Below, piece by piece: positions 1 to 64,000 of a stretch of 64,000 nt of DNA (within the stretch, counting starts at the first letter, position 1; each line of letters opens with the position of its first letter). A program made the position numbers and the translations under genes. Under the pieces are notes generated by a model, which saw only the letters and a program-made list of their open reading frames with translations, was not told the DNA's origin and did not search any database. The DNA comes from Octopus vulgaris (Eukaryota), in NCBI GenBank assembly GCA_951406725.2, contig OX597820.1:29016001-29080000 (forward strand), read 5' to 3'.

Positions 1-270
1 ATACATGGCATGATGGAAGGCCTTAAGAACTTCTTTATTATCTCCTCTAGACCATTTTTCATTCTTTTTCTTTTTTATTTGATGATGAGTGTGGATGGCA
101 ATCTGTTGGAATATTCTGGTGGTGGGGTACTTTCAGCTCCTGTGTTTCGGGAAGATTTGAACCAGTAGCTGATTTTTCGTACAGTCTGGTTCCTCACTGG
201 GGTACGCGACCTTTGTTTATCCGGGTGACGGCCGATCTGGTTTGTATTCTGTTTTGTTATCACTTACACA

Positions 271-375
271 TGACGAGCTTGGACGCTGACATTAGGAGAC
301 GGATCTGTCTGTCTAGAGTTAATTTTTTGAGACAGCACAGCCTCCGAGTTCTCTGAAGAAAAACATTGCTCGTAA
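271..375 (+). ncRNA. Degenerate hammerhead-like motif with non-circularly permuted segment order
   Basis: CTGTCTGTC(305-313) pairs with ACAGCACAG(332-340); AGAGTT(315-320) pairs with AGTTCT just before CTGAAGA(353-359); AATTTTTT before GAGA pairs with AAAACATT after the core; outer ACGAGC/GCTCGT helix. GAAA reads GAGA and there is an extra T after GTC. Confidence 0.4.
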
Positions 376-1020
376 CGTAGCTTCTTAAGGCTAACAGATT
401 TGTATTCGTCTGTATTTATTTGTTGATAGATTTATCCCCGGGCATAGTGTTTTTTTTTTTTTTTGGTGGGGGTGTTTTTAAACTTATGAATTGTTTACAC
501 TGTCTGTGTTAGTTCGAAAAATAAAAAAAAAAAGTTTTTTTTCGTTTGTAACACGTGCTTTCATATGCGTGTATGTGTCCTGTAAATTTCAGGTAGTTGT
601 GTAAACATTAGGATATATGTGTAGTCCTATGGTTATTAAAATTTATATATGATTGTGTAGACAGTGTACTTACTGTTTTGTTTCACTTATATTTTATAAT
701 TTGTAAACTTTCCGATGTTGATTTCGAATGTGTCTTTCGCATATGTTTCACTGATACATCGTGCATGGGAGAAACTGTGCTTTGTATGGCAGTAAAATTT
801 CGTTTTTGTGATTATTTTCGTTAAAGGGCCGCATCCTTCAAGTCTTCCACAGAATTCTTTATCCCATTCCACCGATGTTATTAGATTATATTTGTTTTTG
901 AATGGGCAGCCCGATGTAGCGCATCCATGTTGTTATTCAGCGCGGAGCTATTATTATTATTATTATTATTATTATTATTATTATTATTATTATTATTATT
1001 ATTATTATTATTATTATTAT

Positions 1021-1547
1021 TCAGTAGTTTTATTTTTATAGCGTGCTTTCACTTCACTACCGAGCGCAGCTCTGTGTGCCTTGGGTATGTGCTGTGATTT
1101 GTTGTGATGCTCTGATGGTTATTGTATGGAAAGTGTTCTACGTAGGATGTGTGCAGTGCCTAGTAGTGCAATTTTCTGTATGTTATATGTGTTTGTAAGT
1201 CCTGGTGTTTTTGTTATGCATTTGTCTGAATATTTTTTATCATGCCTAATGCACCTACTATGATAGGAATTGTTTCTGTTTTCAGATTCCACATTCTGGT
1301 TACCTCTATTTCCAGGTCTTTGTATTTTGAAAGTTTCTCCATTTCTTTTAGAGAAACGTTGTCATCTGCCGGTATTGATACATCAATTAGAAAGCATTTT
1401 TTTCTTCATGATCTCTGACAACTATATCTGGTCTGTTGGCCTTAATTTCTCTATCTGTGTGTATTGGCATATCCCAGAGTATGGTTGCTTTCTCGTTTTC
1501 TGTGACCTTTTCTGGTGTGTGCCTATACCATCTTTTTTCTGTTGCTT
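1021..1547 (-). mobile_element. 5'-truncated R4/Dong-clade non-LTR retrotransposon (restriction-like endonuclease C-terminus plus 3' UTR) in a (TAA)n tract
   Basis: Minus strand translates as WYRHTPEKV..ILWDMPIHTDREIKANRPDIVV..CFLIDVSIPADDNVSLKEMEKLSKYKDL..PIIVGALG..QKIALLGTAHILRRTLSIQ* (PD..D RLE motif; one frameshift); TTA repeats on both sides. Confidence 0.9.
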
Positions 1548-1559
1548 ATTATTATTATT

Positions 1560-1660
1560 ATTCTATGTTTGACTTTTGCTTTATGTCTGTACAAGTTGGC
1601 TCCAAGTCTCACCCAGAGACCTCAAGAGACAACAGGTTGGAAGTTCTGTGCCATATATTT
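1560..1660 (-). mobile_element. Probable 3' UTR of a second (TAA)n-associated LINE family
   Basis: Minus strand ..GAGGTCTCTGGGTGAGACTTGGAG..CAAACATAGAATAATAA ends in TAA repeats next to the Dong-type copy; no coding sequence retained. Confidence 0.3.
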
Positions 1661-1990
1661 GGGGGGTTTTGGGGGGGGTTGATGTTGTACTAGTGAATGT
1701 CTAATACATAAAAATAAAAAAAATTTAAAAATTAAAAATAAAAGAAAAAAATTTAAAAAATGTTTTTTTTAATAAAATAAAAAAAATAATAAAAAAATTA
1801 TTATTATTATTATTATTATTATTATTATTATTATTATTATCATTATTAATATTATTATTATTATTATTATTATTAATATTATTATTATTATTATTATTAT
1901 CATCATGATTATTGTTGTTATTATTATCGTTGTTATTATTATTGTTATTATTATTATTATTTTTATTTTTATTGTTATTATTATTATTAT

Positions 1991-2276
1991 TCAGTAGTTT
2001 TATTTTTATAGCGTGCTTTCACTTCACTACCGAGCGCAGCTCTGTGTGCCTTGGGTATGTGCTGTGATTTGTTGTGATGCTCTGATGGTTATTGTATGGA
2101 AAGTGTTCTGCGTAGGATGTGTGCAGTGCCTAGTAGTGCAATTTTCTGTATGTTATATGTGTTTGTAAGTCCTGGTGTTTTTGTTATGTATTTGTCTGAA
2201 TATTTTTTTATCATGCCTAATGCACCTACTATGATAGGAATTGTTTCTGTTTTCAGGTTCCACATTCTAGTTACCT
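1991..2276 (-). mobile_element. Second, shorter copy of the R4/Dong-type 3' end
   Basis: Near-identical to 1021-1305; both ends in TTA repeats. Confidence 0.9.
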
Positions 2277-61201: not shown

Positions 61202-63066
61202 GTTGATAGGAAACGATTAAGAAAGAGCGAAAAAAAAAAGGAGAAAGAAAAGATGTGTAAAGAATAACGATCCAACATGATGAACTGACAGGAAGAAAGA
61301 GGCTGGGGAAAGGGAGATAGTAACGGTGACCCAGCTGGACTAGGGTATGCAAGTGCGTGTGAGTATGTAAGAATGGTGTGTGTTAGTGGGTACAGTCACA
61401 TATTCATCTATATATGCATATATGTGTATATGCATATATGTGTATATGCATATATGTGTATATGCATATATATATGTATATGCATATATGTGTATATGCA
61501 TATATACATACACACGCACATATATATATATGTGTGTGCTGAAGTACTTTTCAACTATGGATATCCTCAGATTTGCAAATAATCGAATGTCAGTGGGTTT
61601 CCTGGATTGTTTGCCCTTTGATTTGTGCTTTACTGTAATAGCCATTAATGAGGCATGCTTCACTTTGATGCGCACCGATTTTAATTGATCCTCGTTAATA
61701 AATGTGTGTGTGCGTGTGTGTGTGTTTTATGTGTGTGTGTAGGTATGTATATTTACATACATACACACACACACACACACACACACACACACACACACAC
61801 ACACATATATATATATATATATATATATATATATATATATATTCATTTATGTATTAATGAACTATGAACTAAGGGAAGTAACTCTGAATGTCCAGAGCAT
61901 GTATTTGAACAACACAGACAAGAGCAAGTATATCAAATACCATACAACTTAACTTATCAAGTGGCAATTAAGACCAGCTCCGCATAAAAAAAAAATCTCC
62001 AAAGCTGTCATGTCATTAATGAAAAATTCAAGTTTATTGTCAGGAGATGATGGCTGCAACTTGATTTCGAGTTGTGACATCGCTTGATTGCTCTCTAAAA
62101 CTAAAACAGGACGGATGTGGCTTTTCATTCCTGCAAAAAACGTACACTCTTCTGTACACATCTGACAATCGTGGGCTTCTCTTGCAATAGGACGTCTCCA
62201 TACGTTTAATACTATACGAGAGCTGAAAAATACGTTGCGAGAGAAATTTGTAGATGGTGTCTGAGTGGAATCTTTTCTTAAAGACCCGGATAGAAGACTT
62301 CATAGTACTTGTGCACAACAAGTTTAAATTCCGCCAAGGTCAAAATTTCCTTTTCGGCTTTCAAATTCGGAAAATGTAGTATCGATCCATACTTGCCATC
62401 TATTTTTCTAATTCTCCTATATGTTGATTATTAAGAAATAGCTGTAGTAAAATTCTGATTGGTTGTTGAGATGATGACGTACAAGATTTAGTATATGTCA
62501 GGAAGAAAACGTAGGTAAGATGGCGATACAAATAGAGAAACTGGGCAAGAAAGAACGAACGTAAATGAGGGAATTGATTATGCAAAGTGACAGAAAGCAG
62601 CAGAAACGGAAATGGAATTAAGAGACGTACGAACGAAAGGTTAAATGGACGGACAGTTGGAGGGCAGAACTGAGAAATGAATGAGTAATTATTTATCTAG
62701 CTCTCTTCTTACCTATATGCCTATTTACTTATTTATGAGCGTGTCTGTCTGTGTATGTGTGTGTGAAAGTGCAAATTTATAGATATCGATAGGTAAAGAG
62801 ATAGGTAGATAAATAGACGGACGAATGGATATAGACAAATACATAGATACATAGACAAACAGAACAGCTCTTTGTTTGAATCGATGAAAGAGAAGCGTTT
62901 AAGCTGTTATATTGTCAAATGATAAAGAAACTACATCAACACAACCACACGTAGGCAATTTGATGCATGCGTAACAAACTAGGTGAAACATTTACAGACG
63001 AATACGCCTATGATAGATCGTTAGCTCCTACACGCATTTTTTCTCTCCTTGTTTTTTTTCTGTGTA

Positions 63067-63104
63067 TCTTTCTGTCGAAGAGCGTAGGCTCGAAACGTAA
63101 AAGA
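63067..63104 (+). ncRNA. Minimal type I HHR-like motif, family G (core CUGUCGA)
   Basis: TCTTT-CTGTCGA-A-GAGC GTAG GCTC-GAAACGTA-AAAGA; perfect stems I and II. Confidence 0.7.
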
Positions 63105-63234
63105 CTTGTTCTATTTTTATTCCTGAGCGCCATACTAATACATTTGTTTGTTTGTACTCCACCTGCCTTCGTCTTTTGTTTATTTTCGTAAACCTTCCCG
63201 TTTTTAAATATATATATATATATTTATATTCTTA

Positions 63235-63624
63235 TACTCTTTTATTTGTTTCAGTCATTTGATAGTGACCATGCTGGAGCACCGCCTTTTGTCGAACAAA
63301 TCGACCCCAGGTTTAATACTTCTTCTATCGGGTTCTTTTGCCGAACCGCTATGTTAAGGAGATGTAAACACACCACCATCGGTTGTCAAGTGATGGTAAG
63401 GGGGACAAACACACACACACACACACACACACACACACATATATATATATATATATATATACGACGGGCTTCTTTCAGTTTCCGTCTACTAAATCCATTC
63501 ACAAGGCTTTAGTCGGCCCGAGGCTATAGTAGAAGACACTTGCCCAAGCTGCCACGCAGTGAAGCTGAACCCAGAACCATGTGGGTGGTAAGCAGGCTTC
63601 TTACCACACAGCCACTCCTGCGCC
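63235..63624 (-). mobile_element. SINE family B
   Basis: Consensus match. Confidence 0.9.
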
Positions 63625-63643
63625 AATAGATATATATATATAT

Positions 63644-63850
63644 AAGGAAAATAGGACAAGGTAGAAATGCTAAAATAATTTTATCATCAAGAACATTTTA
63701 TTACCGGTTTTAATCTGCGACTTTTCAACTTAGAGTAAAGCTTGAAAAACAATTTACTTTAAGTTGAAAAAGTCGAAGACTGACACCGGTAATAAAACGT
63801 TCTTTATGATAAAATTTATTTTAGCATTTCTACCTTGTCCTACTTTCCTT
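63644..63850. repeat. Fold-back element with arms of about 95 bp between (TA)n tracts
   Basis: AAGGAAAATAGGACAAGGTAGAAATGCTAAAATAA at the left mirrors TTATTTTAGCATTTCTACCTTGTCCTACTTTCCTT at the right. Confidence 0.9.
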
Positions 63851-63956
63851 ATATATATATATATATATATATCAACTCGTGTGTTACTTTTCAACATTCT
63901 ACATATATATATATATATATATATATATATATATATATATATATATATATATATAT

Positions 63957-64000
63957 CACGTGATCACGTGACCGACCAGACCATCAGATGTTGTTACACA
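63957..64000 (-). mobile_element. SINE family C tail 1 (runs off the window)
   Basis: CACGTGATCACGTGACCGACCAG adjoining (AT)n. Confidence 0.85.

Follow-up and report, generated by a model that had tools for sequence, protein, structure and literature searches.

We analysed a stretch of 64,000 nucleotides from Octopus vulgaris (assembly GCA_951406725.2, contig OX597820.1, positions 29,016,001 to 29,080,000 of the forward strand; the whole stretch is called the window, and coordinates below count from its first letter) and found in it 12 complete or near-complete minimal type-I hammerhead ribozymes (HHRs) in seven families, or eight if the motif at 8428 is split from family A. At odds that we would put near 70%, the elements that carry them are the 3' ends of several HHR-bearing families of Penelope-like elements (PLEs), mostly heavily 5'-truncated, together with at least one or two short non-coding derivatives (family B and perhaps family F). 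An earlier, sequence-only reading of this DNA had counted about 14 HHR or half-HHR motifs from at least eight families, a fair estimate given the 12 motifs and the three credible halves found here.

The window was scanned with a type-I structural score for the HHR core, CUGANGA (or its U3-A8 form), GAAA and UH in that order, together with stems I and II; this consensus agrees with the excerpted text of PMC4209133. At a score of at least 10 the scan returned 7 motifs, against a mean of 0.4 in ten shuffles (maximum 2) and 1 in the reversed sequence, and at a score of at least 8 it returned 11, against a shuffle mean of 2.1 and 3 in the reversed sequence. The curated set omits two of these 11 (59121 and 6084, both on the minus strand), which have core mismatches, belong to no family and are about as many as the shuffles yield, and adds three minus-strand motifs found by homology (61197 and the mirror arms 43336 and 48525); the two dropped motifs were retained in the score-only test described below. 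The core is intact in six of the 12 (5069, 8428, 23770, 43480, 48629 and 48525), and each of the other six has one core change. Helix III is palindromic in 11, one by way of a G-U pair, although this is not fully independent evidence since the scan score rewards the palindrome. The G10.1-C11.1 pair is G-C in eight motifs, G-U in three and broken in one. Rfam at its gathering score gave no HHR match in the window, as expected for minimal variants. A local search with Hammerhead_1 recovered family C (43474-43553; 28.6 bits, E 1.5e-5, below the cut-off of 34) and missed 8428 and 13634, and an E-value scan of the window was dominated by microsatellite-driven miRNA matches. The elements and the motifs within them are as follows, with family F, for which no valid HHR was found, at the end.

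4226-4353, minus strand: inverted, 5'-truncated arm of family B, mirror of 5072-5188 (95 of 97 identities), with the credible half-HHR 4296 (minus), its core deleted
4322-4353: direct copy of the 32-nt 3' tail of family B (31 of 32 identities)
4472-4900: S1 short interspersed element (SINE) interrupting the upstream part of family B, to which 4354-4471 presumably also belongs
4907-5218, plus strand: main arm of family B, complete HHR with core at 5069 (plus), predicted cleavage after 5131 and a long stem II; ends at (AT)37
5296-5519, plus strand: fold-back with a 55-nt one-sided tail and (TA)n on both sides; its centre is the credible half-HHR at about 5352-5375 (plus), stem II and the GAAA half, the core being lost at the inversion point
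7837-8020, minus strand: family A copy, minimal HHR 7956 (minus), core position 6 altered; ends at a TA-rich tract
8399-8554, plus strand: family A-related copy, minimal HHR 8428 (plus), core intact; ends at a CA/TA-rich tract
13590-13892, plus strand: H13 element, HHR 13634 (plus) with one core change, a TA-rich tract on each side; ends drawn by hand
20612, plus strand: further candidate half-HHR
23662-24414, minus strand: family E fold-back, HHR 23770 (minus) and its mirror, the credible half-HHR 24344 (plus), with the GAAA half deleted; not at (TA)n
42937-43108, minus strand: short fold-back with a 68-nt one-sided tail and (TA)n on both sides; candidate half-HHR at 43068
43148-43832, plus strand: family C fold-back; the right arm, with HHR 43480 (plus) within 43474-43553, reaches the edge of (AT)33; the left arm (43148-43407, with HHR 43336, minus) mirrors it but lacks the final 163 nt and has a broken GAAA (257 of 259 positions shared)
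48275-48811, no strand assigned: family D fold-back, HHRs 48629 (plus) and 48525 (minus) with U3-A8 core covariation, a 55-nt one-sided tail, TA-rich on both sides
60640-60922, plus strand: H60, a decayed HHR element, core 60701 (plus); ends at a short TA tract and then (GT)n; ends drawn by hand
61076-61278, minus strand: family A copy, decayed minimal HHR 61197 (minus)
63010-63207, plus strand: family A copy, minimal HHR 63072 (plus), core position 6 altered; ends at (AT)8
63644-63850, no strand assigned: symmetric fold-back between two (TA)n tracts, with a relative at 8256-8352; no HHR found in it
52776-53571, minus strand: family F non-coding unit (second copy 3116-3962, plus), with a 31-nt direct terminal repeat and TA-rich at both ends

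In every complete motif the cleavage site lies 71-285 nt inside the 3' end of the element; besides 5131 in B, cleavage is predicted after 43547 in C, 48659 in D and 8454 in the A-related motif at 8428. Given this internal position and the retention of both HHR halves, the RNAs that were copied were uncleaved or re-ligated there, and cleavage did not create the end that primes at TA. No telomeric-repeat stretch stands beside any of the 12 HHRs. The change at core position 6 is common to three family A motifs, 7956 (minus), 61197 (minus) and 63072 (plus), and their relative 8428 has the standard base; it may be either a tolerated variant or the mark of a family whose ribozyme was already dead when it spread.

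Seven fold-backs were confirmed (B, 5296-5519, E, 42937-43108, C, D and 63644-63850), in keeping with the sequence-only reading, which had noted several. Asymmetry is evident in B, 5296-5519, 42937-43108, C and D, where one arm has an extra 3' tail of 32, 55, 68, 163 and 55 nt, respectively. Both arms usually end in (TA)n, which is present at both ends of five fold-backs. The arms of family E are separated by other inserted repeats, and the inversion point of family C lies at a short palindrome. Direct copies of the tail also occur as stubs, of 32 nt in B and 31 nt in F. The internal, upstream copy of the B tail has no (TA)n after it, and single (TA)n tracts at 3966, 5220, 63208 and 63850 are each common to unrelated elements, observations that fit a (TA)n target already in place before insertion. 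Since the flanks are (TA)n, target-site duplications (TSDs) are mostly unreadable. The earlier statement that none could be identified was thus largely right, save at family E, the only element outside (TA)n, where a 10-bp direct repeat at 23647 and 24418 is a candidate TSD (null probability 0.005 for one test, with 12 elements examined).

The features by which we recognize PLE-derived elements were found: a sense-strand HHR near the 3' end, inverted, 5'-truncated copies with a one-sided extension (in B, C, D, E and two more fold-backs), and direct stubs of the pseudo-LTR kind (in B and F). PLE ancestry of the window families is likely. The motifs resemble the minimal HHRs of metazoan PLEs (Cervera and de la Pena 2014, PMC4209133), which according to the excerpts number 2,000-9,000 per genome in many families, mostly in solo truncated PLEs, and cleave weakly as dimers. 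Shared features are the minimal type-I fold, the palindromic helix III, an extra base before stem II, the U3-A8 variant, the many families, the solo truncated copies and the inverted pairs 100-700 bp apart. Differences from that set are the long inserts in stem II of B and C, the change at core position 6 in three A copies, and the density in the window (6 intact-core and 12 total HHRs per 64 kb), which would far exceed 2,000-9,000 per genome; octopus does not figure in the excerpts. The elements are likewise similar to endonuclease-positive (EN+) PLEs (Penelope/Poseidon, Neptune and Naiad), for which the accessible text of PMC8557442 (Craig et al. 2021) reports 5' truncation, partial tandems, an inverted 5'-truncated copy with a one-sided tail of 30-40 bp, a microsatellite bias with (TA)n as a preferred target, TSDs that are not discernible, and non-autonomous derivatives; excerpts of PMC8969392 give the same layout. 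They differ in having no open reading frame (ORF) in the window. Naiads, without canonical HHRs and described in PMC8557442 as long inactive in cephalopods, are unlikely sources. Non-LTR retrozymes are also non-coding type-I HHR retroelements with solo monomers (PMC7229834; 10.64898/2026.07.22.740005), and the excerpted preprint (bioRxiv 2026) derives animal retrozymes from PLE pseudo-LTRs. The window differs from them in having minimal rather than canonical motifs, inverted pairs and no head-to-tail HHR arrays; no HHR lies inside any tandem array there, the 184-185 bp tandems being S2 SINE copies.

We then compared the position of the motifs with (TA)n, all statistics being computed within the window. 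In the curated set, (TA)4+ occurs within 300 nt downstream of the cleavage site at 8 of 10 loci, where positions within 5 kb would predict 2.9 (P=0.001), and upstream of it at 4 of 10. With one locus per family the downstream count is 6 of 8 against 2.2 expected (P=0.006), and CA, GA and trinucleotide tracts are not enriched. The score-only set, from which nothing was dropped, gives 7 of 11 against 3.1 expected (P=0.014). The effect is weaker at a distance of 150 nt, and family E is a clear exception. Element 3' ends therefore face (TA)n about two- to threefold above local background, in agreement with the sequence-only reading that most elements end in TA-rich tracts; the distance comparison with background that it had suggested, run within the window, gives P values from about 0.001 to 0.08 by set and threshold.

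Contigs from four runs, compared with the right arm of family C, give deep coverage of it, under three organism labels, as far as 43832 at the edge of (AT)33. The border between arm and tail is spanned by contigs that stem from other copies, and 20 contigs in run X1, with others in X4, X5 and X15, run on 5' of 43406 with other sequence; the fold-back joint was present in one contig only (depth 70.7). Family C is thus a high-copy family (summed contig depth is not a copy number), and the fold-back is the truncation and inversion of one copy. Letters at 43589 and 43663 that are in the minority in the family are common to both arms, which fits copying from one template, a picture that gene conversion would also give. 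No variant in the core reached 8%, and core and stems together held 1 where about 2 of 22 were expected, a difference that is not significant. Subfamilies differ in the 5' strand of HHR stem I (43456). One contig ends in TA at 43718 (segment 43658-43718), and 3' ends may vary. An exact 24-mer of family C gave no match in metagenomes.

As a comparator we used GIY-YIG PLEs from metagenomes, where a PLE profile yielded 80 loci; 55 matches reach the C-terminus, and 46 of these 55 have at least 150 nt of 3' sequence. A sense HHR (score at least 8) follows the ORF at 15 of these 46 loci, and an antisense one at 1 of 46. In 14 of the 15 it lies 168-533 nt downstream of the ORF, and U3-A8 cores like those of family D occur in the 3' untranslated regions (UTRs) of three comparators (L014, L065 and L080). 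In most window elements the sequence retained upstream of the HHR is shorter than about 170 nt, below this spacing, so that the absence of an ORF is what a truncated copy would be expected to show and does not prove non-autonomy. The sequence-only reading had proposed a non-autonomous ribozyme system. Its HHRs are of PLE type and the copies here are non-coding, as proposed, whereas non-autonomy is not established for most of them.

That reading had also seen no Penelope ORF, and we agree: Pfam, tblastn and a profile hidden Markov model (HMM) detected no reverse transcriptase (RT) and GIY-YIG ORF in the window. Of the 193 unique ORFs, the 150 longest were searched with Pfam, which gave only mariner helix-turn-helix and Pif1 domains above cut-off; the remaining 43 (55-59 aa) were covered by the six-frame HMM search. 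The HMM, built from 45 PLE RT-thumb/GIY-YIG proteins (rotifer seed), gave a best E of 2.2 on six frames, and control proteins readily recovered LINE (long interspersed element) and Helitron fragments. In viral contigs the PLE profile gave no confirmed match.

Several observations weigh against a PLE origin with insertion into existing (TA)n. No window family was linked by sequence to a PLE ORF (no metagenome match, and no DNA similarity to the 80 PLE loci), which keeps PLE membership from being closed, and 31 of the 46 comparator loci have no HHR at the score threshold. (TA)4 follows the HHR in only 1 of the 15 comparators and a (TA)6 tract occurs in 1 of 80 loci, which means that the comparators do not generally target (TA)n. 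The enrichment is modest and threshold-dependent, the score-only set with (TA)6+ alone giving P=0.08 (0.078). The window tails of 55-163 nt exceed the 30-40 bp of EN+ PLEs in PMC8557442. Finally, the upstream tail copy of family F is followed by (AT)7, which suggests that some TA may travel with the unit.

The sequence-only reading had offered a different mechanism, in which non-autonomous HHR RNAs are copied by an endonuclease-lacking (EN-) RT that primes on breaks or hairpin ends in (TA)n, as Athena and Coprina do at telomeres. The presence of (TA)n at both ends of five fold-backs is consistent with insertion at double-strand breaks, endonuclease loss is known inside EN+ clades (the excerpts of PMC8557442 give a Neptune-like element of kuruma shrimp), and ribozyme-free SINEs also adjoin (TA)n, which suggests a substrate open to several enzymes. 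The likeness to EN- PLEs such as Athena/Coprina and Terminons lies in an HHR near the 3' end and attachment at a simple repeat. However, those elements are described as generally confined to the ends of chromosomes, where telomeric repeats in reverse complement stand next to the HHR (PMC8557442), whereas the HHRs here lie well inside the element with no telomeric repeat beside them, and the insertions sit among other transposons, within (TA)n that continues on either side. EN+ PLEs already account for the (TA)n bias and the fold-backs, and the candidate TSD of family E is a further point against. We found no specific support for this mechanism and hold it to be unlikely. Excerpts of PMC3124438 and PMC12602865 contributed nothing further on targeting.

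Two other accounts concern the (TA)n itself. The elements could themselves make the tracts or carry them as a tail, by capturing flanking sequence or by slippage of the RT, and would then seed microsatellites. That the enrichment is TA-specific and directional (downstream rather than upstream) argues for this, as does the (AT)7 of family F, but the internal tail copy of family B lacks (TA)n and the inverted arms without a tail also end in it. Among 39 (TA)6+ clusters, 9 are in contact with PLE-type elements only, 11 with SINEs only, 8 with both kinds and 11 with neither, a descriptive attribution with hand-drawn ends in which PLE-type includes fold-backs without a found HHR. Simple repeats make up 12,234 bp (19%) of the window, of which (TA)6+ tracts contribute 2,027 bp, so HHR elements cannot explain most of the microsatellite load, and the earlier suggestion that they may help explain the microsatellite richness is not supported as regards a large share. 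We regard a carried tail as improbable, a shade more so than EN- priming. Alternatively, (TA)n may be a general hot spot of insertion or retention, with HHR elements following the SINE trend. (TA)n adjacency is indeed not special to ribozyme elements: ribozyme-free SINEs touch the clusters as often (19 against 17 of 39), all four S3 SINE copies with an intact 3' end and three of eight S1 3' ends adjoin TA against a background of 3.5%, a (TA)n(TG)n tract lies within S1, and the score-only enrichment is only about twofold. By contrast, few S2 SINEs lie at (TA)n (1 of 17 ends and 2 of 15), and among their 12 full copies 5 have non-TA direct repeats of 10-17 bp, ordinary TSDs, which indicates that the bias is family-specific; family C, moreover, ends exactly at the edge of (AT)33. 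Of the accounts considered, untargeted insertion seems to us the least probable.

On the favoured explanation, truncated EN+ PLEs inserted at existing (TA)n, an element RNA would carry a minimal type-I HHR in its 3' UTR; the fold is evident in the window, and its activity, cleaving only as a dimer on tandem transcripts, is suggested by the excerpts of PMC4209133. The RT/GIY-YIG protein of an intact PLE elsewhere would nick an existing (TA)n tract, and reverse transcription would be primed at the 3' end of the RNA, which lies 70-285 nt beyond the HHR. Synthesis would usually halt near the HHR, before the ORF, as the observed truncation points suggest. Often the new strand would then be copied back, and the resulting inverted arm, shorter by the terminal 32-163 nt, would likewise finish in (TA)n; the arms have this structure, and a single template is its probable origin. 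The split (TA)n tract would then conceal any TSD.

Further candidates were tried as HHRs and rejected. The minus-strand motif at 53579 resembles the 3' end of the S1 SINE (15 of 18 identities), which itself fits the half-motif pattern without a core; the S1 3' stem-loop resembles the second half of a hammerhead and is a source of false positives. The family F motif (3869, plus; about 52900, minus) has no GAAA and no stem I; the units are 770-850 nt long with a pyrimidine-rich body. The family G motif (33510 and 35880, both plus) has an altered core in both copies and lies away from TA; it belongs to a two-copy repeat (33257-33623 and 35602-35988), not near (TA)n, that combines an HHR-like stretch with a terminal hairpin.

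The window is crowded with SINEs, mariner and Helitron fragments and LINE ends. The internal (TA)n(TG)n tract of S1 (4472-4900 and other copies) varies in length. S2 forms partial head-to-tail tandems of units 50-232, producing the 184-185 bp arrays at 30103-30663, 33673-34268, 46355-46913 and 6395-6735. Another, tRNA-headed SINE (18499-18820, 36430-36750 and 39076-39396) has segments in common with S3; ARAGORN reports a tRNA-Val at 39078-39153 in it, and 36430-36750 resembles a chimera of the two. The 3' ends of a young LINE of the restriction-like endonuclease (RLE) type, which we take to be Dong/R4, lie at 1022-1545 (minus), 1992-2274 (minus) and 24111-24245 (plus) and are 94-100% identical to P0003, a sequence with RT and zf-RVT domains; each of the three stops at a long (TAA)n tract, making this a second microsatellite-linked retroelement. 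Two decayed Helitron Pif1 helicase fragments occupy 43950-44450 and 59100-59850, the top three matches of 59348-59638 including Octopus bimaculoides (75%) and O. sinensis (68%). Mariner fragments lie at about 19100, 40650-41200 and 53800-54200.

Our literature search found no study of cephalopod hammerheads; the excerpts of PMC13282606 report 31 recently active Penelope-like families in O. vulgaris, with ribozymes not mentioned there, and Repbase, Dfam and the supplements of PMC8557442 and PMC13282606 may already list the families. The novelty may be the HHR density in octopus, which rests on one selected window. Were that window typical, its roughly 90 HHRs with intact core and 190 in all per Mb would amount to a few hundred thousand per 2.8-Gb genome; in other animals 2,000-9,000 minimal HHRs are on record, and in axolotl as many as 120,000 of the canonical type. 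Octopus would then hold one of the densest HHR populations known, a reading that we consider as doubtful as EN- priming itself. In its boldest form that idea joins dedicated short non-autonomous families, EN- insertion at extruded (TA)n hairpins, self-primed fold-back and carried TA that enlarges the microsatellite pool. As it stands, the finding is one of annotation: short repeats without a class are numerous in octopus repeat libraries, and a minimal HHR with a one-sided tail would identify some of them as members of the Penelope-like order. How the inverted structures form and why microsatellites are preferred are two questions that PMC8557442, in its excerpted text, leaves open; young families of high copy number, C among them, would be good material for both, as they offer numerous junctions of truncation and inversion within a defined (TA)n target.

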